Virus record (IMG/VR): IMGVR_UViG_3300032397_000002
Span: 65,579 to 97,578 of that record
Strand: one strand, 5' to 3'
Length of the DNA stretch: 32,000 bases
DNA from: a virus
Shown in pieces: positions 5,490 to 29,559 of this stretch. Position 1 is the first letter of the stretch, and each line of letters begins with the position of its first letter. Under the pieces are notes generated by a model that was given only the letters and a program-made list of their open reading frames with translations, searched no databases and had not been told where the DNA came from. A program made the position numbers and the translations under genes.

Positions 5490-8400
5490 GTGAAGCTTGG
5501 CAAGTCCCAACGCGAGAAGGAGCCGACGAAGGTAGCCTCTGTCGCTGCCTTCAATCCTGACGGCTTGCTTCTGTTCGGCCTCCGCAACGACACCGAGAAA
5601 TGGACCTTGCCTGGTGGCCACTTTGAGCCTGGTGAAGAGCCCATCGAGGCCGCACGCCGAGAGCTTGAGGAAGAGACGGGCCTGAAGGGTGAGAACTTCG
5701 AGTTCCTTGGCGTGGGCGCTGTCAAGGAAGACCTCCACATCTACTGCTTCCGCTGTCTGGTTGCAGGCGACCCCGACGGTGGCGAAGACCCCGACGAAGA
5801 GTGCTCTGAGTGGAAGTGGTGTGAGCCCTGTGATATTCCTGAGGAGGTCATGGGCAACCTGCACTCCAAGAAGAACATCACGTTGAGGCTGTTGGGCATC
5901 CAGGAAGGCGAAGTCGAAGAGCCCCTGGAGAAGAAGGACCTTGTTGTCACCAAGCCCTTTCCCGTTCAGCACTACAGCACTACGCCAGGCCTGAAGCAGC
6001 TTGACCCTGCCTTCCAGGGGACCGGCAGCGCAGGCCAAGAGAAGAACCGCACCAAGAGAATTCCAAGGACGTACTACTATTCACGTCCGGGCGTGCCGGA
6101 AGCCCACGTTGCCTCCGCCGCCCACCTTTACCACGGGGAGCTGCCCAAGGGCACCCGGCTCTACGACATGGGCAATGACTCCATGGGCCTGATGACTGGC
6201 AAGTGGAGACAGACCAAGCAGGGCATGATGTACGATGCCCCCGACCGCGACAGGGCCGAGAAGAAGCTCAAGGCGCTGGGCTACCACGGGTACCACAACT
6301 ACGGCACCCAGGACGCCCTGGTCTACTTCCACCCACTGCCCGTCCGTCACATCACCAAGTCTGAGGATCTCGACAAGGCCGTCCTCGACCCAAATGCCGG
6401 GTATGCGATTACCCACACGGTCACGCAAGAACCAGCTCAAACCACCCGTCGCGGTGCAGTCCAAGCTAAGACGTACGTGAAAGTGTTAGCCCACCACAAC
6501 GGCAGTATTGTGGGCGCCCTGCACTTGGATGGTTACCATGCGGGCTCGCCTTCAATCACAGCGTTCAACATTGAAGTAGATCCAGCTCATCGACGCAAGG
6601 GTCTTGCTAGTGCCATGTACGCGCACGCTGAAAAGGTCACGGGTTTGAAGGCATCTCCCAGCTCTACCCAATCCCGCGAAGGACGTTTGCTGTGGGAGGG
6701 GAACAATAACACTCCACAGTTCGGCAAGTCTGAAGAGAGCCTCCAGAAGGGTTTCATGGCTGCAGCAGCCATCGCCGGCGCTATGGCCATGGGTGGTGCT
6801 TCCAAGCCCCCAGCTGCCCCGCAGGAGCAAGTTCAGCAGGCACCCAAGCCCCAGATGAACGAGGTAGCCCAGGCCAGCGGCATGCCCGCCTGGACCCCCG
6901 AGGAGCTACATCCCGACCTCATCCCCATCGCTCACCTTGAGTCCAGCTTCGGTCAGAACATGGCGCACGCCAGCCACCCCAAGGGCGAGTTTCATACCGC
7001 TCATGGCGCACTTGGTTTCAAGCCTATCACTGCGCACGAAGAGTACACCAAGTCGAAGTTCATGAACCAGAAGTACCCAGGCCTCAGTTCGCCTGAAGTG
7101 TTTTTGGAGAAGTTCAAGGGCGACAACAAGTTCTACAACCTGCTGGCCAGTGCCCACTTCGCACGTCTGAAAGCTAGACATGGTGACCCACAGAAGGCGG
7201 CATACGCCTGGCGCTGGGGCAGTACCGCATGTGCCAATGCGACTGATGAGCAGATCAAGAACGACGCCTACGTTCAACGGTACACCGCCATGCAGCTGCA
7301 CGGGAAGCAGCTTCAGAAGAATACCGAGGAAATTCTCTCCAAGGGTGAATTCCGCTCGGCTGCCTTCAAGCACAAGGATGGCACCGTAGCGGAGACCGGT
7401 GTCTACCACAACATCGAGCCCTGGCTGCTGGGCGGCTCCATGTCCCATCGCCCCGATGGCCCTCACAACTCCTCGGACTGGGAGGCCGGCTTCGTAACCA
7501 ACGGGGGCGCCTTCATGAACAGGGACCAGGCGGCCAAGCACGTCAGCTTGCACCGCTACAGCCCGGTCACCGGAGAGCTTCGCAACCTGGACTCTCAGGA
7601 CCCTGAGGCGTTTGGCAAGGAAGAGGAACCACCCGAAGGCGCTGACACCAGCTTTGACTTCGGTGCCAATGACCCAGCCCAAGACCAGCTCCATCAGAAA
7701 GCCCTGAAGTCCATTGCCCGGATGCACCCGGACAACCAAAAGATGGCCCAGGCTTGGATTGCCTTCACCAGGGGGCAAACAACTCAGAGGCCTGTTATTC
7801 ACCCAGACATGGAAAGACACCTCGCCAGATTCGGCATCGTGGACCCCAAGGGCTTCCCTTACGCCGAGAATGGACGCTCAATGGAGCGGGTGCAGGCGAA
7901 GACTGGACCTAAGAGGGCTCCAGGTGCCAAGCGTGTGGAGCAACCCGAAGGCCTCCGCCGGTACCGAGGCCTGGACCGCGACTACTTCATGCCCTACCAG
8001 CGTTCTGAGGAGGGCGAAAACGACCTCCTCAAGACCGAGCATGACCCCCTTGAGGCGATGCTGCAGCACGAGAATCCCCGTGAGCGCATCCTCGCCCTGA
8101 AGAACAAGCACGTCACCCCCTACCATCTCCGCATGGCCCTCGATGACGAGGACCCCGAGGTGCGAGCCTTTGCTGCGCGTCATCCCAAGATGACGGAGCC
8201 CCTGATTCATGAAGCTCTCCATCACGAGAGCATCCACACTCGAAAGGCGGCCTTGAGCCGTCCCGACTTGACGTCGGAACACATCCAGTCCGTCCTCTTC
8301 GACCCCGACATTCAGACCCTGGCAGCGATGCACCCGCGTTGCACGGAAGAGCAGCGTTCCATGGTCAGTGACCACCACCTGACTCCCCCAGGGCTCCGCC

Positions 8401-10223
8401 ACGAGCTGTTGGCCAAGACGGTGGGCTTCCTGATGTACCCCCGCCTGGGACAGGACAAGGTCACCAACAGGCCGATGGTGCATGAGCCTGCCGTCCATCA
8501 GAAACTGGCTGAGGCGAACAACCGAGCAAACCCATCGGCCAACCTCGGCTTCGTCAGGGCCTCCGCCCTCGATAGGGAGCCTACGCCACCTGAGGCGAGA
8601 TGGACTACGATGAGCATGAGGGGTGGCCGCGCACCGAATGCTCACCTCGGTACCATGGGCCACGAGACTCAGCACGGCATCTTCACACACCTCAAGCAGG
8701 TCTACGGCAAGGAGGCTGGCCATCGCATCATCGCCACAACTCTGACCGCCCTCGACCCATCCGAGCATAAGCACCTGAAAAATCTCACGAATTGGGCTAT
8801 CAAGAGCTACGATTCCGTCAGGCATCCAGAGGAGCGGATCGCTTACCTCCAGAACTACCTTCAGGACCAGATGTGGAGGGCCAAGGCCCACAAGCACATG
8901 AAGATTCTCGGCCACCGCAATGCCGAGAAGGCCAGCCACGACATTGCCAAGGGCATCTGGAAGAAGCTCAAGCTCCGCGCCGAGGCTCTGACCCCCCAAG
9001 AGGTTGGCGTCATCCGCAAGTCCGAGCTTGACATCATTCGAGACTGGGTGAGCCTGAAGACGGGAGATGTACAAGTTGAGCAGTTTGTCAAGTCTGACCC
9101 TGATGTGGGGTATGATAGTACCTACGAGGACCAGTTGGGTATGCAGTCGAAGTTTGAGGCTTTTCTGAAAGCAGGCAAGTTCTTGGCTCACGCGGAGCCA
9201 GACCTTGGTCTGTTTCGGCAGGCCATGCTGGCTGGCCTCGACCTCGATGCTGCAGTGCTCACCTCGGTGGGCCTGGAGGTTGACCACAAGAGCCGCCGGG
9301 CACTGCTGGCTGTCGTGTCCCTGCAGGATGGCAAGCTCGGCAAGGCCGACGTACATCGGACCCACGAAGTCCATGCTTTGATGCCAGACGGCGCCGATGT
9401 GGCCGATGGTGTGCGAAGGGGCTTCAGTGCAGAGACTGAGCAAGACCTGCACCTGGGTGGTCGCCACAGCAAGGGCACCATGATGGTCAGGGACCCGGAC
9501 ACGGGCATGATGTATCTCATCAAACCGGGCAGCGGCAACCAGAGCCCAGCCATGGGTGCGCGTGAAGAGGGTGCCAATCAGAGCCGGCGCGAAGCCGCCT
9601 TCTGGCATGTCGCCGACGTCCTCGGTCTTGGCAATCGTGTGCCACGAGCAGACTTGCTTCTGATTGATGGGCAAGAAGTAGCTGCTCTTCATTTGCTCCC
9701 GTTCAGCTGGAAGAACCTGGAGAAGCTCAAGTTCCAAGACCCGGGCCTGCCACACAAGGCGCTGGAGAAGTACCGCTCCACCGGCGAGCTGCACAAGTGG
9801 GCTGTCCTGGACTACCTCCTGGGCAACCCCGACCGCCATGGCCAGAATCTGATGGTTGGGCCGGAGAAGGATGACCACCCAGTGGCCCTCATTGACCACG
9901 GTAGCGCCTTCGCGGGGCCCAGCTTCGACCCGGCCAGAGACAAGAACTCCTTCATCCCCTACTACCTGCGAGCTTGGAGGGGTGACACCTGGAAGGACCT
10001 GACCCCAGAGCAGCGCCTTCGTGCCATGCCATCATTGGCGCGAGACGCCGACGATCAACTCAGAACCTGGCTTGAGGGCGTCCACGCCGGCGATGTTGAA
10101 CAGATTCTGGCGCGGTACGGTATCGACCCAGCACCCAGCCTGCAGCGCATGGTCCGCCTGAAGCAGCTCCTGGCCGAGCCCAGCGTGAGTCAGGCCATCA
10201 ACCGACTTTGGCTGGCGACGTAA
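5490..10223 (+). CDS. Polyvalent multidomain virion/ejection-type protein (Nudix + GNAT-like + TM + lytic transglycosylase + LRV/HEAT-like repeats + HExxH + PI3/4-kinase-like)
   Basis: Uninterrupted 1577-codon ORF with a GTG start and AGGGGG SD. Individual domains are listed as separate features below. Confidence 0.9.
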   Translation: MKLGKSQREKEPTKVASVAAFNPDGLLLFGLRNDTEKWTLPGGHFEPGEEPIEAARRELEEETGLKGENFEFLGVGAVKEDLHIYCFRCLVAGDPDGGEDPDEECSEWKWCEPCDIPEEVMGNLHSKKNITLRLLGIQEGEVEEPLEKKDLVVTKPFPVQHYSTTPGLKQLDPAFQGTGSAGQEKNRTKRIPRTYYYSRPGVPEAHVASAAHLYHGELPKGTRLYDMGNDSMGLMTGKWRQTKQGMMYDAPDRDRAEKKLKALGYHGYHNYGTQDALVYFHPLPVRHITKSEDLDKAVLDPNAGYAITHTVTQEPAQTTRRGAVQAKTYVKVLAHHNGSIVGALHLDGYHAGSPSITAFNIEVDPAHRRKGLASAMYAHAEKVTGLKASPSSTQSREGRLLWEGNNNTPQFGKSEESLQKGFMAAAAIAGAMAMGGASKPPAAPQEQVQQAPKPQMNEVAQASGMPAWTPEELHPDLIPIAHLESSFGQNMAHASHPKGEFHTAHGALGFKPITAHEEYTKSKFMNQKYPGLSSPEVFLEKFKGDNKFYNLLASAHFARLKARHGDPQKAAYAWRWGSTACANATDEQIKNDAYVQRYTAMQLHGKQLQKNTEEILSKGEFRSAAFKHKDGTVAETGVYHNIEPWLLGGSMSHRPDGPHNSSDWEAGFVTNGGAFMNRDQAAKHVSLHRYSPVTGELRNLDSQDPEAFGKEEEPPEGADTSFDFGANDPAQDQLHQKALKSIARMHPDNQKMAQAWIAFTRGQTTQRPVIHPDMERHLARFGIVDPKGFPYAENGRSMERVQAKTGPKRAPGAKRVEQPEGLRRYRGLDRDYFMPYQRSEEGENDLLKTEHDPLEAMLQHENPRERILALKNKHVTPYHLRMALDDEDPEVRAFAARHPKMTEPLIHEALHHESIHTRKAALSRPDLTSEHIQSVLFDPDIQTLAAMHPRCTEEQRSMVSDHHLTPPGLRHELLAKTVGFLMYPRLGQDKVTNRPMVHEPAVHQKLAEANNRANPSANLGFVRASALDREPTPPEARWTTMSMRGGRAPNAHLGTMGHETQHGIFTHLKQVYGKEAGHRIIATTLTALDPSEHKHLKNLTNWAIKSYDSVRHPEERIAYLQNYLQDQMWRAKAHKHMKILGHRNAEKASHDIAKGIWKKLKLRAEALTPQEVGVIRKSELDIIRDWVSLKTGDVQVEQFVKSDPDVGYDSTYEDQLGMQSKFEAFLKAGKFLAHAEPDLGLFRQAMLAGLDLDAAVLTSVGLEVDHKSRRALLAVVSLQDGKLGKADVHRTHEVHALMPDGADVADGVRRGFSAETEQDLHLGGRHSKGTMMVRDPDTGMMYLIKPGSGNQSPAMGAREEGANQSRREAAFWHVADVLGLGNRVPRADLLLIDGQEVAALHLLPFSWKNLEKLKFQDPGLPHKALEKYRSTGELHKWAVLDYLLGNPDRHGQNLMVGPEKDDHPVALIDHGSAFAGPSFDPARDKNSFIPYYLRAWRGDTWKDLTPEQRLRAMPSLARDADDQLRTWLEGVHAGDVEQILARYGIDPAPSLQRMVRLKQLLAEPSVSQAINRLWLAT
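5526..5900 (+). other. Nudix hydrolase domain of the polyvalent protein
   Basis: A perfect Nudix box, GX5EX7REUXEEXGU, reads G43-HFEPG-E49-EPIEAAR-R57-E-L-E-E-E-T-G-L65 (nt 5616-5684). Confidence 0.85.
6357..6737 (+). other. GNAT-like acetyltransferase module (copy 1)
   Basis: ITAFNIEVDPAHRRKGLASAMYAHAEKV carries the acetyl-CoA motif A (R-x-x-G-x-A). The whole module, LDKAVLDPNAGY...PQFGKSE, is paralogous to 12579-12917. Confidence 0.6.
6750..6803 (+). other. Predicted transmembrane/hydrophobic segment
   Basis: GFMAAAAIAGAMAMGGAS, followed by a P/Q-rich linker and then the SLT domain. Confidence 0.5.
6918..7300 (+). other. Lytic transglycosylase (SLT-like) domain
   Basis: LIPIAHLESSFGQN supplies the catalytic Glu in the E-S motif (codon 6939-6941). 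It is followed by HGALGFKPITA and AAYAWRWGS, which is typical goose-type/SLT architecture. Confidence 0.7.
8067..8360 (+). other. Leucine-rich-variant/HEAT-like helical repeats
   Basis: Periodic DDEDPEVRAFAARHP / HESIHTRKAALSRPD / DPDIQTLAAMHP units. Confidence 0.45.
8661..8675 (+). other. HExxH (zincin-like) motif
   Basis: GTMGHETQHGIF (H1058-E-T-Q-H1062). It is a single motif and the fold is unverified. Confidence 0.35.
9450..9965 (+). other. PI3K/PI4K-like atypical kinase catalytic core
   Basis: MMYLIKPG provides a candidate ATP-binding Lys. The catalytic loop is DYLLGNPDRHGQNLMV (DRHxxN, nt 9831-9848). LIDHGSAF is the DFG equivalent (9894-9902). Confidence 0.55.
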
Positions 10224-11072: not shown

Positions 11073-11942
11073 ATGGCAAGAGACGGTCGTAAACCTATCG
11101 AGCCGATGGCGATAGATCAACGTGACATTGAAGTATCGTTCGACCCTGATGCTTTCGACGCAGCCCTCCGTAGCCATGGTGTCAGTTTGGTGCACTATGT
11201 GGCCCTACGTTGCCCTGTCGGCATGACGGACCTCGATGACAACCGTCGCCCCCACGAAGACCACGCAGGCTGCAGCAACGGTTTCCTCTACTCCAAGGCC
11301 GGCTGTATCAAGGCCCTCATGGTTGGCAACCAGAACAAGCAGGACCTCCGTGACATCGGCTTTGTAGATGGGGCCAGCGCCACCTCCACCTTCCCACGCA
11401 CCTACGAGGACGGGGAGAAGGACTTCTACCTTGCCCCCTACGACCGCTTCTACCTCAATGAGGAGAGTATCACCGTCCCCACCTGGCAGCTGAGCCGTTG
11501 CAATGAGAGTGGAACGGAACGTTTGGCCTTCCCCGCCGCCTGTGTTGAGCACCTGGTTGATTCAAGGGGCGACACCTACAAGGAGGGAGAGGACTTCCAT
11601 GTTCACAGTGGCCAGGTCTTGTGGCTGCCTGACGGGAAACGCCCCATCAACGACCTGGAAACGGGCCGTGGGTCTGTCATCAGCATCCGCTACCGCTATC
11701 GCCCCTTCTGGTACTGTGCTCGTCTCCTTCACGAGATTCGCGTTGCCCAGATTGAGCACCCCATCCTCGATGAAAGGCGCCTCATCCGCATGCCCCAGCA
11801 GGCCCTCCTCAATCGAGAGTTCTTGTTCCTCAACGAGAGCCATGACGACCAGGCCCGCCGAGACCCCAGGAACAAGGACTCTGGCCCGGAAAGTCCACGT
11901 CAGACCCCAGAACCAGACGATGGCGGCTTTGGTCCACGGTAA
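11073..11942 (+). CDS. Hypothetical protein (likely virion component, by context)
   Basis: 289 aa, starting 1 nt after the upstream stop. No motif recognised. Confidence 0.65.
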   Translation: MARDGRKPIEPMAIDQRDIEVSFDPDAFDAALRSHGVSLVHYVALRCPVGMTDLDDNRRPHEDHAGCSNGFLYSKAGCIKALMVGNQNKQDLRDIGFVDGASATSTFPRTYEDGEKDFYLAPYDRFYLNEESITVPTWQLSRCNESGTERLAFPAACVEHLVDSRGDTYKEGEDFHVHSGQVLWLPDGKRPINDLETGRGSVISIRYRYRPFWYCARLLHEIRVAQIEHPILDERRLIRMPQQALLNREFLFLNESHDDQARRDPRNKDSGPESPRQTPEPDDGGFGPR

Positions 11943-11947: not shown

Positions 11948-11957
11948 CCCCTTGGAG

Positions 11958-13277
11958 ATGACGATGTCCGACTTGGGCAGAAAATTCATGGCGGCGGCAC
12001 TTGGGAACGATGGGGCTCAGGCCCTCCGCAAGGCTGCTGAGCGTGAACCTGCCCTAGACCAGGTCCTCATCCCTCGCGCCATTGTAGGCTGGCTGTCTTT
12101 CACCACCGAGCATGAGTACGAAGGCCAGATTCCAGGTGTTGAGAACAGCTACGTGCAGTTTCAGAAGTCAGACAGCGGCTTCAGTGGCAGCATCACCCTC
12201 AATGAGGGCATCTACAGCTTTGAAAATGCCAGTCTCTACCACCTCGCTGCCAGCATCGCAATGGCCCTGGGCGTCGAGACGGGTTCCTTGGAGGCTGGGG
12301 TTCGAGATACGGTCCTGGTGAAGCTGGGCAAGAGCATCGACACCTTGGCCAAGGCTCAAATTCTGATGGCAGAGCTGAGGTCCCCCAAAACGCTTCAGCC
12401 ACAGAAGATGTCAAGTCACGGCGCTTACCATGTGGAACACATGGGCCAGGGCGATAGGCCCTACTTGGTTGTCCACAGTCTCTCCAAGTCGACTGTCCAG
12501 CGTGGGATTGCAAGTCTCAAGGACGCCGGAGAAATCGCCACCTGGCACCACAAGAAGTACAAGGGCGCCTTCCATCCAAACCTGGACAAGGCTGTATTGG
12601 ACCCCAAACTGGGCTACCAAATCCATCACGAGGAAGCACCAGAAATTGCCGGCTCAGGCCCACTGCTTCGCATCAAGGCGGTTGCACCAAACGGGCAAAC
12701 CGTTGGCCACGCGCTCTTCACTCATCACGGTCCACATCTGCAGCCGGCCACTGTAGCTGTTGACGAAGACCACCAGCGTCGAGGTCTTGGCTCTGCCATG
12801 TATGCTCACGCCGAGAAGGTCACAGGCAAGAAGTTGATTCCATCGAAACTCCAGACTGACGAAGGTCAGGCACTCTGGTCAGGTAACACCAAGAACCCGC
12901 AGTTCGGCAAGGTCGAACTCCCCGGGCACGCACATCTCCCTACCCAGCAGCAAGGCCCCCAGGGCGCCATGCCACCCCAGAAGCAGCCAGCGATGGGTCA
13001 GGCCACTCAGGGTGCAGCACCCAAGCCCAAGCTCCCCAAGGCGCCCAAGCAGCCCCCTCTCGCGGTCGGCAAGTCCGAGTCTGAGCAGGCCTGCGAGGTC
13101 TGTGGTGGGCACCAGTTCGAGAGCAACAAGTTCAGGGGCTGCATCTGTTTCAGGGACTTGGCCAAGAGCATCAAGACCACCGCCTATGGCGACGGCTACG
13201 TGTTGGACTTCAGCTCCAGCATCGATGCCGACACAGTCAGGGCTCTGATGAAGACTTTCAGGAGCCACAATGGATAA
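11958..13277 (+). CDS. GNAT-like domain protein with P/Q-rich linker and C-terminal Cys cluster
   Basis: The start is ambiguous (TTG 11952, ATG 11958 or ATG 11964). It carries GNAT-like module copy 2, ATVAVDEDHQRRGLGSAMYAHAEKV (Q-x-x-G-x-G), and a Zn-ribbon-like CEVCGGHQFESNKFRGCIC. Confidence 0.75.
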   Translation: MTMSDLGRKFMAAALGNDGAQALRKAAEREPALDQVLIPRAIVGWLSFTTEHEYEGQIPGVENSYVQFQKSDSGFSGSITLNEGIYSFENASLYHLAASIAMALGVETGSLEAGVRDTVLVKLGKSIDTLAKAQILMAELRSPKTLQPQKMSSHGAYHVEHMGQGDRPYLVVHSLSKSTVQRGIASLKDAGEIATWHHKKYKGAFHPNLDKAVLDPKLGYQIHHEEAPEIAGSGPLLRIKAVAPNGQTVGHALFTHHGPHLQPATVAVDEDHQRRGLGSAMYAHAEKVTGKKLIPSKLQTDEGQALWSGNTKNPQFGKVELPGHAHLPTQQQGPQGAMPPQKQPAMGQATQGAAPKPKLPKAPKQPPLAVGKSESEQACEVCGGHQFESNKFRGCICFRDLAKSIKTTAYGDGYVLDFSSSIDADTVRALMKTFRSHNG

Positions 13278-21331: not shown

Positions 21332-22681
21332 ATGAAGCTCTTCGTGTCTTTCGATGGTGACCACATTGGCCGCATGGTTGGCAGGGCCAGCCTTGCCGAC
21401 AATCCCGAGGAAGTCTCCAGGATTGCACAGGGAATTGACCGTGGCAACCGCCTGTGGGCGAGCTGGGCTGAATCTCATGGCGGCAAGGTCATCAACATCG
21501 GTGGCGACGAAGGCCGGCTGGAGATTGAGGCGGACTACCTCTCTGAGCTGCCCGGCATCCGTGAGCAGTACGAAGGGGCCGTGGGTAGCACCTGCAGCGT
21601 GGGCGTTGGTACCAAGCTCAGCGAGGCTGACAAGAGCCTGATGGCAGCGAAGCTCCAGGGTGGAGACCGCACCCAGCTCTACACCGAAGAGGTTGATGAG
21701 ATTCTGTCCAAAGTCAAGGAGAAGTCTGAGGGCGAGAAGCTTGAAGACGAGTACCTTGACCCCGAGACAGGCCTGAAGAAGGCGGATCCGGCAACGAATC
21801 CGGCCATGAATCCCGGCGATAATGCCGGATTCTCTGGTGCCAGCCAGAGCACCCCAGCTGCCCCTCAGAAGCCCACCGAAGGAAGCGAACACAGCGAGAA
21901 CGAGGCCCTCAACAGCCAAATTGCAGCTGCACCCAAGCCCCCGGAAGCCCCCAAGGCCACTGCAGCTGACTACGAGCAGCTCTTCCACCAGCTGGCAGCC
22001 CAGCAGAAGGATGTGCCAGCTCAGAAGCCCTCTGGTGTGGTCGATGGTGTCCGTGAGCAGGTCGTCAAGGTACTCCAAAATGTGAGGGCTCACGCTCCAG
22101 AATTGGAGCAGATGAAGGCGAGCAACCCTGAGATGTACCAGTCCGTGGTGGGCGTTGTCCAGGCGATGATTGCCATGGCGCAGAGCACCCTGGGCGATGA
22201 GGGCCAGCAGCCCCAGCAGGTTCAGAAGGCCGAGGACAAGATTGAACTTGACCCCAGTCAGCCCCCGAAGGATTCCAAGGTTCTCAGCAAGGACCTGATG
22301 CCAGGTGGCGCCGGCGACAACAAGCCTGACTCTGACTTCGACTCCGAGGAGCTTCTGGAGGGCATGAGGCAGGAGATGGTCGAACACGGTCTCGACGAGA
22401 AGAGGGCCAAGGAAGTTGCCAAGGACCATCTGGTCGAAGACCCCAACTACTACTCCAACATGGAGAAGGCCGCCCTGACTGCCGGCAAGACTGGTCGTCA
22501 CCAGGTGGATCTCCCTGTTGGTTCGCAGATTGATGCAGGTCCCAGCGCTGCCCATGAGAGTGGTGAGCTGAAGGTGCAGGACCCAGCAACAGGCAAGACG
22601 AAGTGGCGCAGTGTTCGTGCTGGCATTGTGATGGCACCGGATGGGACACCCACTTCGAGCCGGAACCCCAGCGGGGGCTAA
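21332..22681 (+). CDS. Minimal GGDEF/Cas10-palm (mCpol-like) nucleotide-cyclase domain protein with long low-complexity linker and conserved C-terminal module
   Basis: 449 aa. The N-terminal ~115 aa contain LFVSFDGDHIG (two acidic metal ligands, nt 21350-21370), the GGDEG hairpin (21500-21514) and SVGVGTKLSEADKSLMAAKLQGGDR. The last parallels the GGDEF-family SxGxA...AD.ALY.AK..GrN. A P/A/Q/E-rich middle follows, then GGAGDNKPDSDFDSEELLEGMRQEMVEHG...AKDHLVEDPNYY (22286-22471). Confidence 0.6.
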   Translation: MKLFVSFDGDHIGRMVGRASLADNPEEVSRIAQGIDRGNRLWASWAESHGGKVINIGGDEGRLEIEADYLSELPGIREQYEGAVGSTCSVGVGTKLSEADKSLMAAKLQGGDRTQLYTEEVDEILSKVKEKSEGEKLEDEYLDPETGLKKADPATNPAMNPGDNAGFSGASQSTPAAPQKPTEGSEHSENEALNSQIAAAPKPPEAPKATAADYEQLFHQLAAQQKDVPAQKPSGVVDGVREQVVKVLQNVRAHAPELEQMKASNPEMYQSVVGVVQAMIAMAQSTLGDEGQQPQQVQKAEDKIELDPSQPPKDSKVLSKDLMPGGAGDNKPDSDFDSEELLEGMRQEMVEHGLDEKRAKEVAKDHLVEDPNYYSNMEKAALTAGKTGRHQVDLPVGSQIDAGPSAAHESGELKVQDPATGKTKWRSVRAGIVMAPDGTPTSSRNPSGG

Positions 22682-23509
22682 GTGATTTACTTCAACCTCG
22701 ACCTTGGCCCCATCATCGCGATGACGAGAGGGTTCGACTCTGCTGTCCGCAAGGCTATGACCGAAGCTGCGCGTGACCTGACCACGCAGACTCATGCCCA
22801 CATCCTTGAAGAGGTCCAGGCCAAGCTCCACAGCACCCGCGAGAAGTACGTCAAGGCGTTGAGCTTCAAGCAGGTCGACCAGGACACCTGGGTCATCGAG
22901 CTTGGCAAAGAGGCTATGTTCATTGAGGAGGGCCTCAAGCCCAACACGGACATGCTCGATGGCCTCCTGAGGTCTTCCAAGGCCAAGACCGCCAAAGACG
23001 GCAGCCGCTACATCGTGGTGCCATTCGAGCACAAGAAGGGTGCAACCCAGCAGACCTCTGCAGCAACCAACCTCACCGACACCATCAAGTCCGAGATGAA
23101 GAAGCGCAAGATTCCGTACGGCAAGCTTGAGAACGGACCAGATGGCAAGCCCAAGACCGGCCTCCTCCACAGTTTCGACATCATGAAGCAGCCCGTCAAG
23201 ACGGCACCTGGCGCTGGCTCAGGGCGTGGCCCGATAGGTGCTGTGAAGCAGGGGCCCACCGGCATCCCCTTCCTGCAAGGCGTCAGGGTCTACCAGAGCA
23301 AGGTCAAGGATGCAAAGGGCAAGGAGTCGGTGAAGAAGTCCATCATGACCTTCCGCATCGCCAGCTCGAAGATGAAGGGTCAAGGCCGCTGGGTTCACCC
23401 AGGGCTGGAAGCCAAGAAGTTCCTGGATGAGGCAGCTGAGTGGGCTCTGAAGGAGTTCGAGACTCGCATCAAGGACCAAATTCTCATCAGCGTGGTGGGC
23501 GGTTTTTGA
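22682..23509 (+). CDS. Hypothetical virion protein, loosely HK97 gp10-like (neck/tail-completion)
   Basis: 275 aa with a GTG start abutting the upstream TAA; an alternative ATG lies at 22721. FDSAVRKAMTEAARDL...AMFIEEG resembles the gp10-family pattern, but weakly. Confidence 0.55.
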   Translation: MIYFNLDLGPIIAMTRGFDSAVRKAMTEAARDLTTQTHAHILEEVQAKLHSTREKYVKALSFKQVDQDTWVIELGKEAMFIEEGLKPNTDMLDGLLRSSKAKTAKDGSRYIVVPFEHKKGATQQTSAATNLTDTIKSEMKKRKIPYGKLENGPDGKPKTGLLHSFDIMKQPVKTAPGAGSGRGPIGAVKQGPTGIPFLQGVRVYQSKVKDAKGKESVKKSIMTFRIASSKMKGQGRWVHPGLEAKKFLDEAAEWALKEFETRIKDQILISVVGGF

Positions 23510-23792
23510 TTCGGGCCTGAGCTGTAGCCAGGATGTCCGAGAAATCATCAGTACTGACGGCATCTTGAGGGTGTTCGGAGTTGAATTCAGCCGCCTTGTT
23601 CCCCAACCAGGTGAAGAGTTCGGTGACCGTCTTGAGAATCCACTCCACCCGATACCCCGTTGGATTCTCTCCACGACCAATGGCAGCTTGCATCTCAACC
23701 CTGAGCTTGGCTCCATACCGTAGCTTGGCCTCCTTGTCACTGACGAACTTCAGGAGGATGCGTGATGCGTTCTTGGCGGTGTCGTCGTTCAT
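23487..23792 (-). CDS. Reverse-oriented hypothetical protein
   Basis: 101 aa from the internal ATG at 23792. It overlaps the 3' end of the convergent upstream gene by 23 nt. Confidence 0.5.
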   Translation of the reverse strand: MNDDTAKNASRILLKFVSDKEAKLRYGAKLRVEMQAAIGRGENPTGYRVEWILKTVTELFTWLGNKAAEFNSEHPQDAVSTDDFSDILATAQARIKNRPPR

Positions 23793-23804
23793 TGTCCAGC
23801 CTGT

Positions 23805-23814
23805 GGTAATCTTC
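23805..23814 (+). promoter_or_regulatory. Conserved upstream motif copy 7 (GGTAATCTTC)
   Basis: Lies in the divergent gap 23793-23881, 68 nt before ATG 23882. Confidence 0.35.
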
Positions 23815-23837
23815 AAGCTACTGGGGCCACTTGAATG

Positions 23838-23846
23838 ATTGTACCA
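23838..23846 (-). promoter_or_regulatory. Candidate extended -10 promoter element for the reverse gene
   Basis: The minus strand reads TGGTACAAT (TGn + TACAAT, 5/6 match). No good -35. Confidence 0.3.
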
Positions 23847-23881
23847 CTGTCGGAAGAGACACTTGACGCTGGGAGCCACTG

Positions 23882-24289
23882 ATGATAGTCGCGCGACCCA
23901 GATCAGATGGAGCCATTGCGACAGCGGTCTGCACAGCAGCCGAAGTTGTGGGCGACCTCGTCTACATTAGCGGTGCTAAGGTGGGTGCTGACTACAGCGT
24001 CAGGACCGCAGACAACACCCTCACGGCCAAGATGCCGGCAATCGGCGTCATTGTTGCCAAGATTTCTTCGACCAGGGCCTTGATTCAGCTCCAGGGGGAG
24101 ACAACCCTCTTCACCGGCCTGACCCCTGGCACAGTCTACTGGGTCGGTGACACGGGCCAGCCTACGAGTACCCCACCAACCCCAACTGGGCCAGGGGCTC
24201 GAAAGTACTGGCAGTCCATCGGAGTTGCGACCGACTCTGGTAGAATAAGGCTTGACTTCACAAAGGTTCTCAGAACCAGGGTAGGGTAA
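23882..24289 (+). CDS. Hypothetical small beta-rich virion protein (decoration/cement-like pattern)
   Basis: 135 aa. GDLVYISG...AIGVIVAK...LTPGTVYWVG...QSIGVA resembles small head-decoration/DUF2190-like proteins. This is a weak call. Confidence 0.55.
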   Translation: MIVARPRSDGAIATAVCTAAEVVGDLVYISGAKVGADYSVRTADNTLTAKMPAIGVIVAKISSTRALIQLQGETTLFTGLTPGTVYWVGDTGQPTSTPPTPTGPGARKYWQSIGVATDSGRIRLDFTKVLRTRVG

Positions 24290-24291
24290 AC

Positions 24292-24738
24292 ATGGCACGA
24301 AAAAGCAAGAAGAAGGCCCTCGACCTCAACGAGCCCATCGTGGGTGAGGTCACCGATTTGCGCACTGACTTTGAGTTGCAGATTGAGAAAGAGCTGGAAA
24401 AGCCAGTGGTTGCACCTGAGGAACCTCAGGAGCCAACACCTCCGGCTCTCACCAAGGATGAGCTTCATCGTCTCCAGCTCACTCAGTTCCAGGCTCGGGC
24501 TTTTGATGCCGAGGCCAAGCTGGAGATGATCAAACGCGACCTCTTCGTGAAGCAGGTCGACCCCGAGGGCAAGCTCCAGCAGATGATGTCCATCATCCGG
24601 GGCAGGACCGACGAGGCTGTGGCGGCCAAACAGGATTACGCCAAGACTGTCAAGGACATCGAAGAGCGCCTGAAGCTCAACCTCAAGGAATGGGCCTACG
24701 ACGAGAACAACGGCGTCCTTTCCAGGGTAGACCAGTAA
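24292..24738 (+). CDS. Coiled-coil hypothetical protein (assembly/scaffold-like)
   Basis: 148 aa with a basic N-terminus, an acidic/Pro linker and long heptad-like helices. Confidence 0.6.
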   Translation: MARKSKKKALDLNEPIVGEVTDLRTDFELQIEKELEKPVVAPEEPQEPTPPALTKDELHRLQLTQFQARAFDAEAKLEMIKRDLFVKQVDPEGKLQQMMSIIRGRTDEAVAAKQDYAKTVKDIEERLKLNLKEWAYDENNGVLSRVDQ

Positions 24739-24769
24739 CCTACAGTCTCCATTTTAGCTCCCGTGGGCA

Positions 24770-24779
24770 CCTAATCTTC
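24770..24779 (+). promoter_or_regulatory. Conserved upstream motif copy 8 (CCTAATCTTC)
   Basis: Lies in the 24739-24816 gap, 38 nt before ATG 24817. The SD TTGGAG follows. Confidence 0.35.
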
Positions 24780-24816
24780 AGGTTGGAACTAAACCAACTC
24801 TTTTGGAGATTCAACC

Positions 24817-26187
24817 ATGGCCGGTCTTAAGAAATTCACCTTCCTCAACGCCACCGAGGGCTACACCGAGGAGCAGGCGTCCAACGACGAGCTTTCGCTC
24901 GGCAAGGTCACCGCAGTCGGCGTCTCTGGCATCGCTTTCGATGCCTCCTCGCAGCGCGTTGTTGGTGTTGCGGCCCCCACGGCCGGCACCGACGCCGTCA
25001 ACCGCGACTACGTCCAGGCTTACTCTGCTGGTCTTGACTGGAAGCAGTCCGTTCGAGTCGGTACCGCAGCGGCTCTGCCTGCCTACACGGCATCGGGCAC
25101 TGGCGTCGGCAAGACCCTGACTGCAGCCGGCAACGGCAACATCAACACCACCGGTCCTGGTATCGATGGTATCACCAACCTTGTCGCGCTTGACCGCGTC
25201 ATTGTCATGTCGGAAGGCGCAAGCCACGTCGACCATGGCATCTACTTCTTCGCGACCACTGCAGACCTCGGCACCGCCGGTACCCCCTGGGTTCTGACTC
25301 GCGCCACCGATGCAGACCAGAACGCAGAAGTGACCGCAAACCTGGCCGTCTTCATTGAGGAAGGCACTGCCAACCTCGATACCGGATGGACCCTGGTCAC
25401 CAACAACCCCATCGTTGTTGACACCACGGCACTGACCTTCACTCAGTTCACCGGTACCGGCGGCATCATCGCAGGTGCAGGTATCGTCAAGTCTGGCAGC
25501 ACCCTCAATGTCGAGCTTGACACCACTGCCAACGCGCAGGGTGCAGGTACTGCTGGTGGTAGCTCGGGTCTTGAGTTCGACACCTCTGGTGTTGCAGGCA
25601 AGCTCCGCTCTGCTGTCAATGCGACTGCAGGTCTGCAGCGCACCGCCTCTGGCCTCGGAGTGCTACTGGACGGCACCACCCTCCAGTCCAGCGGCTCAGG
25701 TCTCAGTGTCAAGGGCCTTCCCTCGCTGTTCGAAATCGCAACCGTTGCTACCTCGGCAAACGTGTCTGCGGCCAACCTGAATACCCTGACCGCCGGTTCC
25801 ACCAGCGATGCAAGTGCCCTGCACATGCACTCTGTGGTTTCGGAAGTCTGGACCACGTCGGCCAACACCACTGTTGGTGTGGGTCTCTACATCAGCGGCA
25901 ACAACACCGTGGCTCCTGGTGCTGCAGCTGTCGATGCTCAGGCTCGCGTCATCGGCTGCGCCAAGACCGCAGTTACCAGCCCCGCTCCTGTCGAGGTCAT
26001 CTCGTCGGGTCCAGTGGCCGGTGCACTCTCTGGTGCCACCGCGAACGTCCCCTACTACCTCGGTTCGGCAGGCACCCCGGTGCTCTACGCTGCACTGACC
26101 GGTGGTGACCGCACCGTGCGCCTCGGCTTTGCCAAGAACGCCACGGACCTCGAAGTTCGGGTTCACGACTACGGCAAGAAAGCCTAA
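24817..26187 (+). CDS. Tail fibre / fibre-like protein
   Basis: 456 aa. PTAGTDAVNRDYVQ, then WKQSVRVGT...LDRVIVMSEG...HGIYFF...WVLTRATDAD...AVFIEEGTANLDTGW. This is the widespread phage tail-fibre N-terminal pattern (DAVNK.YVD / W.R..D.D). The C-terminal half is Gly/Ser/Thr/Ala-rich. Confidence 0.65.
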   Translation: MAGLKKFTFLNATEGYTEEQASNDELSLGKVTAVGVSGIAFDASSQRVVGVAAPTAGTDAVNRDYVQAYSAGLDWKQSVRVGTAAALPAYTASGTGVGKTLTAAGNGNINTTGPGIDGITNLVALDRVIVMSEGASHVDHGIYFFATTADLGTAGTPWVLTRATDADQNAEVTANLAVFIEEGTANLDTGWTLVTNNPIVVDTTALTFTQFTGTGGIIAGAGIVKSGSTLNVELDTTANAQGAGTAGGSSGLEFDTSGVAGKLRSAVNATAGLQRTASGLGVLLDGTTLQSSGSGLSVKGLPSLFEIATVATSANVSAANLNTLTAGSTSDASALHMHSVVSEVWTTSANTTVGVGLYISGNNTVAPGAAAVDAQARVIGCAKTAVTSPAPVEVISSGPVAGALSGATANVPYYLGSAGTPVLYAALTGGDRTVRLGFAKNATDLEVRVHDYGKKA

Positions 26188-26214
26188 CCAGTAGCCCATC
26201 AGGGCTTGGTTTTC

Positions 26215-26250
26215 AAAAGGCCTCGGGATTCCCGGGGCCTTTTGCTTTTC
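26215..26250 (+). terminator. Strong rho-independent terminator
   Basis: AAAAGGCCTCGGG-ATT-CCCGGGGCCTTTT forms a 13-bp stem with one G:T pair, followed by GCTTTTC. Confidence 0.8.
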
Positions 26251-26253
26251 TGT

Positions 26254-26263
26254 CGCAATCTTA
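26254..26263 (+). promoter_or_regulatory. Conserved upstream motif copy 9 (CGCAATCTTA)
   Basis: Lies immediately after the terminator, 17 nt before ATG 26280. The SD GAGGCAGAG follows. Confidence 0.35.
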
Positions 26264-26279
26264 CCTCTGAGGCAGAGCC

Positions 26280-26825
26280 ATGGCCATCACCAAGACCAAC
26301 CCGCTCAAAAACGAGCCGACAGAGGGCTACGAGGAAGACTTTGATCCGAACGTGGATGCTGCAGCCGTGCGTGGTATCTACATCCAGAACGACTCCAGTG
26401 CCGATACGGCCGTCTTGGTCACGCGGGACGCCAGCAACAACCTCACCCTCACCGACCCCGTTGCAGGCTCTCACACGCTGTCGGCACTTACGACCGGTGG
26501 CGGAGGAATCAGCGAAAATCAGCACCGTGCACTTCGCCAACTCATTCATTTCATTGACAATGGTCCAGCCAACGGATTCGCTTCGGGCGCCTACCGTGAG
26601 AATCTGCCTACAGGTAACCCCTTTGTGACCTCTGTCACATGGTATGATGACAATACGAAGGTGAAGAAGCTGGTACAGAAACTCATCACTTACACGGGGG
26701 TCTTGGCGACCCAGGTGCAATGGAAGATGTATGACGTGGATGGGTCGACTGTTCTTGCAACTGTCACCGATGCCATCACCTACTCAGGCATTTTTGAGTC
26801 TGACAGGACAAGGACGATAGCCTAA
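26280..26825 (+). CDS. Hypothetical protein (tail-module context)
   Basis: 181 aa. Its stop overlaps the next ATG (TAATG). Confidence 0.6.
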   Translation: MAITKTNPLKNEPTEGYEEDFDPNVDAAAVRGIYIQNDSSADTAVLVTRDASNNLTLTDPVAGSHTLSALTTGGGGISENQHRALRQLIHFIDNGPANGFASGAYRENLPTGNPFVTSVTWYDDNTKVKKLVQKLITYTGVLATQVQWKMYDVDGSTVLATVTDAITYSGIFESDRTRTIA

Positions 26826-28732
26826 TGGCAGCCGAATCTCCAGTTGCATTGATTTACGGATACAACGGCACCTCGTACATCGAGACCACTATCCGTGCAG
26901 GCCTGACCGTGCCAGCTGGGCAGCCAGGTTTCATGGCCCTTGGTTCCGACGGTACTGCTGCCAGGTACCTGAAGGTCAGTGCTACGGGCGTTCTTGCTGT
27001 TGATGGCTCTGCTGTCACCCAGCCCGTCTCTGGTACCTTCTGGCAAGCCACTCAACCTGTCAGCATTGCCACAATGCCGACGACTCCTGTGACTGGGACC
27101 TTCTGGCAAGCTACCCAGCCTGTCTCGGCAGCAGCTCTACCTCTACCGTCTGGCGCGTCGACCTCTGCCAAGCAACCAGCCCTGGGAACGGCAGGAACGG
27201 CCTCTGCTGACGTCCTGACGGTCCAGGGCATCGCTGGCATGGTCGCCCTCAAGGTCGATGGCTCAGGGGTCACCCAGCCTGTCTCCGTGGCCAGTCTCCC
27301 ACTTCCATCTGGAGCAGCCACTGAAACAACGCTGACCGGCGTCCTGACGACCTCCGCATTCCAGGCGCGGGTGCCAGTAAACGGTCAGGCTGCAATGTCC
27401 GGCAGCGTTCCTGTCGTCATTGCTTCTAACCAGTCCGTGTTGCCAATCAACGACAACGCGGGCAGCCTCACCATCGACTCCACCCAACTTCCGGCCGCCT
27501 TGGTTTCTGGGCGGCTGGACGTCAACATCGGAGCCAGTACCTCCATCGCGGTCACGGGGACATTCTGGCAAGCCACTCAGCCCGTTTCTGCCGCTTCCCT
27601 GCCCCTGCCCACCGGTGCAGCCACCGAAACCACGCTGGCGGCGGTCAGCGGGAAGCTCCCGGCTGCATTGGTCGGTGGACGGCTCGACTCCAACGTGGGG
27701 GCCATCAACAACGTCACCCCACTGATGGGCAACGGCGTCACCGGCACCGGCAGCCTCCGAGTCACCATCGCCAGCGACAACACCGCCTTCAGCACCAACA
27801 GTATCCAGAGCGGCTCATGGACGGTCACAGCCAACGCTGGCACCAACCTCAACACCAGCGCCTTGGCTCTGGACGCAACGCTCACTGGCAACAACCAGCG
27901 CACCCGCATCACCGATGGCACCAGCCTCGCGACCATCAAGGCTGCCTCCACGGCTCCGGTAGCTGGTGATACGGCTATCGTTGTGGTGCTCAGCCCCAAT
28001 CAGCAGGCAATCCCCGTCACCACGAACCCGACGACCTCTTCGCCAACCCTTGCGTTCGGCGACATCACGCTGGCGGCAATCACCACAGCCGCCATCCGTC
28101 GTACCACGTACACGGAGCAGACCACCAACTTCACGGGCTCCATCGTCAGCGCCAGCGCCAACGACTCAGCAGCTGGCACTGGTGCCCGCACCGTCAAGAT
28201 CTACTACGTTGACCAGACCGGAGCAACGGCTGGCACCGAAACCGTCACCATGAACGGCACCACGCCTGTCAACCTGGTGACCAGCACCAAGTGCTTTATC
28301 GAGAAGATGGAAGTCGTGACCGTGGGCTCTACGGGCTCGAACGCCGGCATCATCACCCTGAAGACCGGAGCAGCAGGCGCAGGCACTACGGTTGGAACCA
28401 TCGGTGCCACCGACAACACGACTCTCTGGGCCCATCACTACGTGGTCACCGGCAAGACCGCCAACGTCACCGGCATGCAGTTCGGCACGACTGTCACCAA
28501 CAGCGCCGGTGTGGCCAGCGCCTTCTTGCGTGCCCAAATCATCGGTGGGTCGAACCTCGTGGAGAAGCAGGTCAGCGACGCCATCACCGTCGCTGGTTTG
28601 GACAGCTCCGTTTTCCGCTCGTACGGTTCGCAAATCCAAATCGCAGGCCCTGCCCGCATCACCATGTACGTCGCCACCCTCACTGGATCGTCCTTCGTGT
28701 ACCGAGGGTCGTTCGACTCCTACGACGTGTAA
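26825..28732 (+). CDS. Tail fibre / receptor-binding-type protein with internal sequence repeats
   Basis: 635 aa, Thr/Ser/Ala/Gly-rich. GTFWQATQPVS occurs three times and LPLP(S/T)GA(A/S)T(E)TTL three times. Confidence 0.65.
   Translation: MAAESPVALIYGYNGTSYIETTIRAGLTVPAGQPGFMALGSDGTAARYLKVSATGVLAVDGSAVTQPVSGTFWQATQPVSIATMPTTPVTGTFWQATQPVSAAALPLPSGASTSAKQPALGTAGTASADVLTVQGIAGMVALKVDGSGVTQPVSVASLPLPSGAATETTLTGVLTTSAFQARVPVNGQAAMSGSVPVVIASNQSVLPINDNAGSLTIDSTQLPAALVSGRLDVNIGASTSIAVTGTFWQATQPVSAASLPLPTGAATETTLAAVSGKLPAALVGGRLDSNVGAINNVTPLMGNGVTGTGSLRVTIASDNTAFSTNSIQSGSWTVTANAGTNLNTSALALDATLTGNNQRTRITDGTSLATIKAASTAPVAGDTAIVVVLSPNQQAIPVTTNPTTSSPTLAFGDITLAAITTAAIRRTTYTEQTTNFTGSIVSASANDSAAGTGARTVKIYYVDQTGATAGTETVTMNGTTPVNLVTSTKCFIEKMEVVTVGSTGSNAGIITLKTGAAGAGTTVGTIGATDNTTLWAHHYVVTGKTANVTGMQFGTTVTNSAGVASAFLRAQIIGGSNLVEKQVSDAITVAGLDSSVFRSYGSQIQIAGPARITMYVATLTGSSFVYRGSFDSYDV
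27013..27640 (+). repeat. In-frame intragenic repeats (GTFWQATQPVS / LPLPxGAATETTL units)
   Basis: GTFWQATQPVS lies at 27032-27064, 27095-27127 and 27557-27589. The LPLP unit lies at 27137-27175, 27296-27334 and 27599-27637. The nucleotide copies are diverged at synonymous positions. Confidence 0.85.
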
Positions 28733-28740
28733 GGTTCTCT

Positions 28741-29559
28741 ATGGCACTTTCGATCTCACAGAATCTGACCCAACGAAGCTACCAGTGGACTGCCTGGAAG
28801 GGCGTCAAGAACGTCAAGTCCTTCTCTTGTCAATTCGACGAGGACGCTGAGACGTACACCGTCTACGGGTACGACGGACCAGAAGTTCACCTTTGCAAGA
28901 TCTGGAAGGGAGCGGTCCCCGACGGAGTCCTGAGTGTCTACAGCCAAGAGCAGAACGATGCCGACAAGGCTGACTTCGAGACGCACTACAAAGACACTGC
29001 CAACTGGCCCCTGGAAAAGCGAGAGAAGGACGGACGTCTCGTGGCTCGCATCAGCACTGCGACCAGCGGCCACCTGTTCCGGCTTCGCGCCTACAGCTTC
29101 AAGACCTGCAACCCCAGCACCCTTCACAACTGCAAGCCCGACGGCAGCAGTTATGGTGACGTTACCGTCACCGAGTTCGACGGCAATGGCGATGTGATTA
29201 CCGGCTCCGACTTCACGGCTTCAGTGAAGACCTACATCGACTTCGAGGCCCAGCAAGACATTGAACTGATCGGCGGCTGGTCTGAGATTGACGACAGCAT
29301 TCATGGCAGCGGCATGGGTGCCTGGTATCTGAGCTGCATCGCTGCTCCCGACGTCCCTGCCCAGTACGGGGGCTGCATTGACTTCATCTCGGAAGCCGAC
29401 CTCGGCGCCCTCCAAGACAAGCGAATTGTCACAGACGGTCGAAGCTCGGCGCTCATCAAATATGACCCCACGTACCACTCTGGGAAGATTCGCATCATCA
29501 TCAAGCATCCAGCTGGAGTCCAGAAAGACTTTCAGTTCTTCATGGAGACCTTCCGATAA
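28741..29559 (+). CDS. Hypothetical protein (tail-module context)
   Basis: 272 aa from ATG 28741, 9 nt after the upstream stop. The longer track ORF from 28291 overlaps the fibre gene out of frame. Confidence 0.6.
   Translation: MALSISQNLTQRSYQWTAWKGVKNVKSFSCQFDEDAETYTVYGYDGPEVHLCKIWKGAVPDGVLSVYSQEQNDADKADFETHYKDTANWPLEKREKDGRLVARISTATSGHLFRLRAYSFKTCNPSTLHNCKPDGSSYGDVTVTEFDGNGDVITGSDFTASVKTYIDFEAQQDIELIGGWSEIDDSIHGSGMGAWYLSCIAAPDVPAQYGGCIDFISEADLGALQDKRIVTDGRSSALIKYDPTYHSGKIRIIIKHPAGVQKDFQFFMETFR

Follow-up and report, generated by a model that had tools for sequence, protein, structure and literature searches.

Within a 32,000-nucleotide stretch of viral DNA (the window: positions 65,579 to 97,578 of IMG/VR virus record IMGVR_UViG_3300032397_000002), one gene encodes a protein of 449 amino acids (aa) in which an mCpol (minimal CRISPR polymerase) palm domain with an intact active site is joined to a modular scaffold; the gene keeps a conserved place beside a neck-position gene and its family is restricted to phages. 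This is a known enzyme domain in an undescribed, phage-specific architecture of structural-module type. With about as much confidence as doubt, we favour the view that the protein is a virion-module scaffold that would carry an active mCpol cyclase as an accessory counter-defence warhead, a view drawn from its sequence and from those of its relatives. The phage may bring its own signal-making enzyme into the host. The gene and the elements of its cyclase domain are, in window positions:

21332-22681, + strand: complete mCpol-scaffold gene, ATG start, stop codon included, 449 aa (from the listing of open reading frames, ORFs)
21332-21691, + strand: mCpol palm domain, aa 1-120 (Pfam PF18182, AlphaFold2 model, Foldseek)
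21353-21361, + strand: strand-1 acidic motif D8-G9-D10, D8 being the equivalent of KpOptS Asp6 (phmmer alignment to 9nwn and 9mnr)
21500-21511, + strand: hairpin motif G57-G58-D59-E60, D59 being the equivalent of KpOptS Asp57 (phmmer alignment)

The N-terminal domain is a genuine mCpol rather than a chance motif because: (i), Pfam mCpol (PF18182, gathering cut-off 26.4 bits) matched the whole protein with 37.9 bits (E 2.7e-9) and the N-terminal domain alone with 41 bits (E 2.7e-10), the alignment spanning profile positions 1-111 of 114. (ii), phmmer against PDB sequences aligned the domain over its full length with 9nwn and 9mnr, two Panoptes mCpols of known crystal structure and, (iii) an AlphaFold2 model built on 50 family members, with a predicted local distance difference test score (pLDDT) of 97-98 across aa 1-130, found its best PDB matches by Foldseek in the OptS mCpols 9pd0, 9mnr and 9nwn (E 8e-8 to 1.5e-6, template-modelling (TM) score 0.81-0.86, root-mean-square deviation 1.6-2.7 Å; for the best match TM 0.86 and 1.6-1.9 Å over 119 columns). 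GGDEF domains and Cas10/Csm1 formed a second tier well behind OptS, with E of about 1e-4 to 1e-3. Profile and structure searches had been proposed in the preliminary description of this DNA, and both returned a palm domain (PF18182 and the OptS structures); the three palm landmarks it had read from the sequence are all in place, namely FDGDHIG at aa 7-13, GGDEG at aa 57-61 and SVGVG...ADKSLMAAKLQGGDR at aa 89-113. The domain begins at residue 1, so that there is indeed no N-terminal sensor. No Pfam match to GGDEF (PF00990) was obtained even at E<=10, and Cas10-Cmr2_palm2 reached 14.8 bits against a cut-off of 27; the window holds neither HD or D4 domains nor cas genes.

In 2025, mCpol was shown to be the signal generator of Panoptes, a system in which loss of the product to phage sponges or nucleases leads to host suicide. 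With Panoptes OptS (type I: KpOptS, VnOptS; 9mnr, 9pd0, 9nwn; PMC12657218, PMC12657230) the window protein shares the minimal palm of about 115 aa (TM 0.86), the Asp pair (Asp6/Asp57, here D8/D59), the C-terminal Lys (K107) and the absence of a sensor domain. Asp6 and Asp57 of KpOptS are its metal-binding catalytic residues (PMC12657218). OptS is constitutively active (PMC12657218, PMC12657230) and, by analogy, the window mCpol, likewise sensor-less, is likely to be so too. The differences are as clear: identity is about 22%, the window gene is phage-encoded, its domain is fused to about 330 aa of scaffold, it has no OptE, 2TM-beta, CARF-TM or SAVED partner, and it lies in a neck/tail block and not in a defence island. 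The GGDE hairpin, nearly absent from OptS (PMC12657218), is complete in the window protein. The position equivalent to S30 of OptS, which selects the base (PMC12657218), is Ala in the window protein and Ser in most family members, and the position equivalent to N34 is Asp in the window protein. GGDEF cyclases and the Cas10 palm share with the window domain an RRM-like palm, the D-x-D strand, the GGD[ED] hairpin and the C-terminal Lys; compared with GGDEF, the window domain is shorter (about 115 vs 160 aa) and has no I-site, HD domain or CRISPR context. The gene is thus neither a Panoptes system nor a GGDEF cyclase nor a Cas10, and its N-terminal domain is a member of the mCpol family. A word-index search with this domain alone, aimed at cellular mCpols, returned only three fragments of the same family.

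Conservation of the active site was surveyed over 166 full N-terminal domains of the family, those with strict D8/D10/G58/D59/E60 being counted as intact. This set is kept in 89 of the domains, and D8, D59 or both are lost in 75; among representatives at 50% identity, 35 are intact and 53 degenerate (n=88, about 60% degenerate). On a neighbour-joining tree with the catalytic columns masked, the state changes between intact and degenerate at least 10 times, in some cases within very close relatives of the window protein (P0006, P0023 and P0025). Intact members (n=91) conserve D8, G9, D10, G13, G17, R18, D23, N39, G57-E60, R77, Y80, S89, S97 and K107 at 87-100% (D8 at 100%), whereas the same positions fall to about 20-83%, mostly 20-60%, in the degenerate subset. 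The fold-core residues W45, G51, G91, G93 and G110 exceed 88% in both subsets alike. The cyclase assignment had at first been made to depend on conserved acidic residues among homologues: they are not conserved in 53 of the 88 clusters, and they are in the subset of the window protein (98-100%). Because the active-site residues collapse together while the fold core stays, the pattern reads as purifying selection on those copies that have retained the enzyme and as true inactivation of the others. The window protein retains every conserved active-site residue of the intact subset and, given this together with the signature of selection, we infer that it is catalytically competent.

The same data have to be weighed against the possibility that the protein is essentially structural or morphogenetic (a neck, head-completion or assembly factor) and uses the mCpol fold for oligomerisation or nucleotide binding, the cyclase being vestigial. 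The predominance of degenerate clusters (53 of 88, with at least 10 independent changes of state) and the conservation of W45, G51, G91, G93 and G110 in both subsets are what such a protein would show, and so is Myxococcus phage Mx1, the sole cultured member, whose copy is catalytically degenerate and yet keeps gene, tail and synteny. On the other hand, about 17 active-site positions remain 87-100% conserved in the intact subset down to about 35% overall identity, and they collapse jointly in the degenerate forms, as one would expect only from selection for catalysis in the proteins that keep it. We therefore regard an essentially structural role as possible but rather unlikely, a judgement to which the architecture of the family also contributes.

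The preliminary description had presented the gene as a stand-alone cyclase. It is not: a search with the 449-aa protein recovered the near-identical P0001 and 121 other homologues, and mCpol is the N-terminal module of a conserved family of multi-module phage proteins. Across 120 homologues and in the model, the order of modules is mCpol, linker, middle bundle, an optional insert, an optional DUF5661 and the tail. In the window protein, the modules that follow the mCpol domain are:

21692-22036, + strand: linker 1, aa 121-235, short helices followed by P/A/Q/E-rich disorder (pLDDT 40-58 over most of it; low conservation)
22037-22195, + strand: middle helical bundle, aa 236-288, three helices (pLDDT 81-92; present in nearly all members)
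22328-22486, + strand: DUF5661-type helical hairpin, aa 333-385, an optional module (Pfam PF18905; pLDDT 94-97)
22487-22678, + strand: C-terminal tail, aa 386-449, LPVGS...GxIKV...W..VRAG...SSRNP, which defines the family

The stretch of about 200 aa first described as low complexity is disordered at aa ~143-235 and 289-332, while aa 236-288 between them form the conserved helical bundle (pLDDT 81-92). The C-terminal module first noted as resembling parts of other phage proteins corresponds to Pfam DUF5661 (PF18905), which scores 22 bits in the window protein, below its cut-off of 27, and from 24 to 49 bits in homologues; this domain does not occur in the literature searched and is present in only about one third of the members. 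The hallmark of the family, overlooked in that description, is the terminal tail of about 60 aa, which is 60-90% identical across the family, lies nearly always at the end of the protein and is its best-conserved part outside the cyclase. No match to the tail was found in Pfam, PDB or PHROGs, and PHROGs and PADLOC did not recognise the mCpol-scaffold protein; the middle bundle and the tail are two undescribed conserved modules. In close relatives without DUF5661 (such as P0007, P0008, P0011 and P0015-P0018), its place is taken by a Cys/His-rich segment, CKWKLGERRCxRxxTGDYCHxHxxHW, which resembles a small zinc-binding module.

An exhaustive phmmer search with aa 336-449, followed by clustering at 50% identity, gave at least 320 representative clusters for the C-terminal module. 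The proteins range from 92 to 1,459 aa, and their sources are metagenomes, where contigs of about 170 kb are frequent, and Myxococcus phage Mx1. An mCpol-like N-terminal domain is present in 75 of 112 newly retrieved proteins of this set. The window protein is this modular, polyvalent-type protein in its smallest form, with one enzyme domain plus DUF5661, and long relatives on the same scaffold add GNAT, ART-PolyVal, radical SAM or DUF3293 between the middle bundle and DUF5661/tail; P0327, for instance, is laid out as mCpol, GNAT and tail. Such additions of GNAT, ART-PolyVal and radical SAM would not be needed by a purely structural protein. Radical SAM occurs in the same scaffold in P0311, P0303 and P0334, with P0311 reading mCpol at aa 8-118, radical SAM at 571-725, DUF5661 at 977-1014 and then the tail.

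The gene also keeps its company. The preliminary description had suggested a survey of co-occurring genes; once run, it placed a 275-aa partner directly 3' of the mCpol-tail gene in each of the 19 tail-bearing loci; the two genes are often only 0-8 nucleotides apart. The order in the tail-bearing loci examined is mCpol-tail gene, 275-aa gene, small reverse-strand gene and 381-aa gene, and in the window these neighbours are:

22682-23509, + strand: partner gene, 275 aa, in the neck/connector position (phrog_16819; weak Neck1/tail-completion match)
23487-23879, - strand: small gene, 130 aa, between rightward structural genes (homologues at the same place in nearly all loci)
30588-31733, + strand: 381-aa gene of the conserved block (phrog_1000, unknown function)

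Distant full-length homologues of the partner lie, in Herelleviridae, between genes of major-capsid size and genes of tail-sheath size, and it is on its position there and in Mx1 that the role of the partner rests: profile searches of the partner and of the 381-aa protein against PDB sequences were empty, and the AlphaFold2 model of the partner (pLDDT 79.6) had no significant Foldseek match (best E 0.09). In most relatives, the 381-aa gene follows the partner as the next gene in the rightward direction; a single gene stands between the Mx1 homologue and the tail sheath, which is annotated four genes downstream of the mCpol-tail gene. The invariable adjacency of a neck-position gene is a further point that a structural function of the protein would explain. 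Since the gene, its place and the tail persist after catalytic death, the scaffold probably has the conserved role of attaching physically to the neck-position protein or to the particle, and the keeping of place and tail where catalysis is lost speaks for a structural anchor with an optional enzymatic payload.

Upstream, the products of the conserved block include a virion structural protein (phrog_1004), a protein with a GNAT domain and one of 1,577 aa that combines NUDIX, GNAT and kinase domains. The last of these (5490-10223, + strand) has NUDIX at aa 15-116 (E 4e-21), GNAT at about aa 328-383 and a PI3/PI4-kinase-like region at aa 1416-1476; it resembles a giant polyvalent multi-enzyme protein and is conserved in most related loci and in Mx1, which has it in two parts, 'NUDIX hydrolase' and 'kinase'. 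The 441-aa GNAT protein (11952-13277, + strand; domain at aa 244-292) directly follows the phrog_1004 protein (11073-11942, + strand), and both genes are kept with the block in Mx1 and in the IMG/VR loci, which places another enzyme among structural genes. In the window, as in its closest relatives, the partner and the 381-aa gene are separated by a block (23882-30571, + strand) that Mx1 and many other loci lack; among its products are a fibre/decoration-like protein of 456 aa (24817-26187), a protein of 635 aa without matches and a 161-aa ClpP/crotonase-like protein (29559-30044), and the block appears to be an insertion of accessory structural genes.

The window belongs to the genome, roughly 170 kb long, of a large uncultured phage. 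A 168,622-bp Joint Genome Institute (JGI) contig encodes a protein with 100% identity to the partner, and synteny with the window extends to a 168,933-bp contig whose proteins are 78-90% identical. The sole cultured relative is Myxococcus phage Mx1 (169.6 kb), the only cultured phage to carry the family by tblastn, and no DNA-level similarity to cultured phages was found. Family patterns run against 185,579 cellular species genomes hit two short contigs of metagenome-assembled genomes (MAGs) only, so that the family is distributed over phage and metagenome contigs and these two MAG contigs. The 10 kb upstream of the window in the source lineage hold accessory genes and no head genes. Mx1 encodes, besides its degenerate mCpol, a separate and intact 243-aa GGDEF-type cyclase (OR576727.2 17173-17904, locus L026; best PDB match the SadC GGDEF, E 2.7e-6), whose gene lies between those of a 1,239-aa 'prohead protease' and the major capsid protein. 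In this one genome it could functionally replace the degenerate mCpol; no relatives of it were retrievable for a comparison across genomes of its complementarity with intact mCpol-tail proteins.

The family as a whole appears, from its sequences, to behave like a polyvalent protein. In such proteins (PMC5512222), as here with mCpol, GNAT, ART-PolyVal, radical SAM and 2H, unrelated enzyme domains stand on one polypeptide, and the genes lie among phage structural genes, as do the 19 of 19 loci with neck synteny and the Mx1 gene with a tail sheath downstream. T4 Alt is the prototype of a packaged enzyme in this comparison. According to the accessible part of that survey, polyvalent proteins are inferred to be packaged and injected, and rare GGDEF and 2H domains among them have been suggested to interfere with nucleotide signalling (PMC5512222). 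The mCpol domain, the middle bundle and the C-terminal tail are not described in the searched text of the survey, nor is mCpol mentioned in the searched parts of it and of jumbo-phage surveys. The window member also differs in having no MuF, portal or metallopeptidase module that would tie it to known packaging routes. Taken together, the late-operon position, the polyvalent-type architecture and the restriction to phages make loading into the virion and delivery the most economical reading.

For enzymatic activity, product, packaging and host target, we infer the following sequence of events. The scaffold (helical bundle, optional DUF5661 and tail of about 60 aa) would tie the protein to the neck/connector module of Mx1-related myophages of about 170 kb, most likely by binding the adjacent 275-aa neck-position protein or the particle, and the protein would then travel with the virion. 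Like OptS, the N-terminal 120 aa would oligomerise and bind NTP-Mg (nucleoside triphosphate with magnesium) through D8 and D59, and would make a cyclic di- or oligonucleotide without need of a sensor. In the host, this product could interfere with cyclic-nucleotide immunity, for example by resupplying the decoy signal that is watched by guards such as Panoptes, and the phage's own sponges or nucleases would not trip the host toxin. The mCpol warhead would be kept or lost according to host pressure, alongside the other enzymes found in relatives. A more specific version is unlikely, though it deserves to be stated: as a virion-delivered counter-guard, a constitutive mCpol would make a Panoptes-type decoy (e.g. 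2',3'-c-di-AMP or cA3) and keep the host toxin silent while phage sponges or phosphodiesterases dismantle signalling by CBASS (cyclic-oligonucleotide-based anti-phage signalling system) or type III CRISPR.

Several observations weigh against this proposal of a virion-borne warhead. About 60% of the representative clusters lack the catalytic residues, and catalysis therefore cannot, as far as these sequences tell, be the core function of the family. The window protein has a single enzymatic domain and is thus polyvalent by family membership only. Association with the virion is deduced from gene order alone, because neither the scaffold modules nor the partner has a recognisable solved virion homologue. 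We considered the tail as a general or shared packaging tag and dropped the idea, because it does not recur on other proteins of the window, of locus L001 or of the Mx1 locus. Finally, the 32 kb of the window offer no specific immune context, since no sponge, phosphodiesterase or receptor was detected there: Pfam, PHROGs and PADLOC found no CARF, SAVED, 2TM effector, sponge or phosphodiesterase in any of its ORFs, and so bear out the earlier remark that no cognate receptor or effector lies nearby.

This last point bears on a different scenario, in which the protein is a late enzyme that is not packaged and whose product is read by a phage receptor elsewhere in the ~170-kb genome, for lysis timing, superinfection exclusion or late regulation. 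Every characterised mCpol works with a cognate sensor-effector, the window covers 32 kb of the genome, and nucleotide signalling seems recurrent in the lineage, since Mx1 encodes its separate GGDEF-type cyclase in the head module. Nucleotide sensors (CARF, SAVED, 2TM-beta-barrel or other) were nevertheless not found in the window and none is recorded in the flanks of related loci, where the conserved neighbours are of structural type; frequent catalytic loss with retention of the gene is also hard to square with an essential internal signal. We consider this scenario doubtful.

Defence systems carried by phages are known, and the domain is the same as that of OptS, so the gene could also belong to a phage-borne, Panoptes-like defence against competing phages with its effector elsewhere. 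This we judge very improbable. The defining feature of Panoptes, an adjacent effector gene (mCpol with an S-2TM-beta, CARF-2TM or SAVED-2TM effector), is absent from the window. The genes conserved beside the mCpol gene are of structural type, and the mCpol domain itself is joined to a scaffold of the structural module. Panoptes is typically found in cellular genomes beside CBASS in defence islands, and the accessible mCpol/Panoptes literature places the domain in cellular defence operons only, whereas the present family was found on phage and metagenome contigs and, in the search of cellular genomes, on no more than two short MAG contigs. Moreover, a tail sheath and tRNA arrays give the contigs of about 170 kb the look of lytic myophages.

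The proposal of a virion-borne cyclase can be set beside a second phage lineage, of about 138 kb, in which the distant relative P0120 and likewise P0117 (L003 10001-12187 and L004 8437-10623) have a 2H phosphoesterase joined directly to mCpol, both domains being intact. The phosphoesterase of P0120, with the motifs HISI and HVTI (HxS/T at 201 and 287), is weakly Acb1-like (19 bits against 27 for the Acb1 model), and the protein has no tail and is encoded among very large co-directional genes. Acb1 is an anti-CBASS 2H phosphodiesterase, so the fusion ties the phage mCpol lineage to the degradation of nucleotide signals; the window protein differs from Acb1 in having no 2H domain, and P0120 differs from the window protein in lacking the tail and in its phage context. 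The P0120 fusion and the Mx1 cyclase fit recurring nucleotide-signal enzymes in the virion modules of these phages.

The immediate surroundings of the gene agree with its first description as the opening of a rightward run next to a neck-like gene: a short divergent gap lies upstream and the gene with the weak Neck1-like match abuts it downstream.

21273-21331: divergent intergenic region, 59 bp, between the leftward 87-aa gene (21009-21272) and the mCpol gene (sequence read)

A GGGAAAGAGG stretch lies within this gap, about 13 nucleotides upstream of the ATG, and a promoter scan of the 59 bp gave a sole sigma-70-like match, on the minus strand, that did not exceed the shuffle expectation. A 621-aa ORF on the opposite strand (21305-23170) was set aside as a GC-rich artefact, profile, structure and homologues all backing the + strand ORF. 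The gene faces a leftward block that includes an HslV-family peptidase-like protein (18436-19077, - strand; phrog_1040, E 2.7e-16), an NT5C 5'-nucleotidase (19029-19619, - strand) and a dNMP-kinase-like protein (19616-20443, - strand); as listed, the first two overlap, and their start sites need revision. Further upstream are a thioredoxin (170-472, + strand) and a ThyX-type thymidylate synthase (2020-2862, + strand), the latter listed mechanically as 1936-2862 with a TTG start, the internal Met at 2020 being its probable start.

If the counter-guard version of the proposal were true, it would be the first anti-Panoptes mechanism of a phage and the first viral use of a Cas10-family cyclase, and the 2H-mCpol fusions and the repeated catalytic gain and loss would be footprints of an arms race. 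More generally, the family suggests that phages took the signal-making enzyme of their hosts and may deliver it with the particle, which, if true, would add to the arms race a layer of signal replenishment or jamming instead of depletion. The middle bundle and the tail may mark an enzyme-loading route into virions. By losing its active-site residues together, time and again, the family offers a natural experiment on the conditions under which a warhead of this kind is worth its cost.

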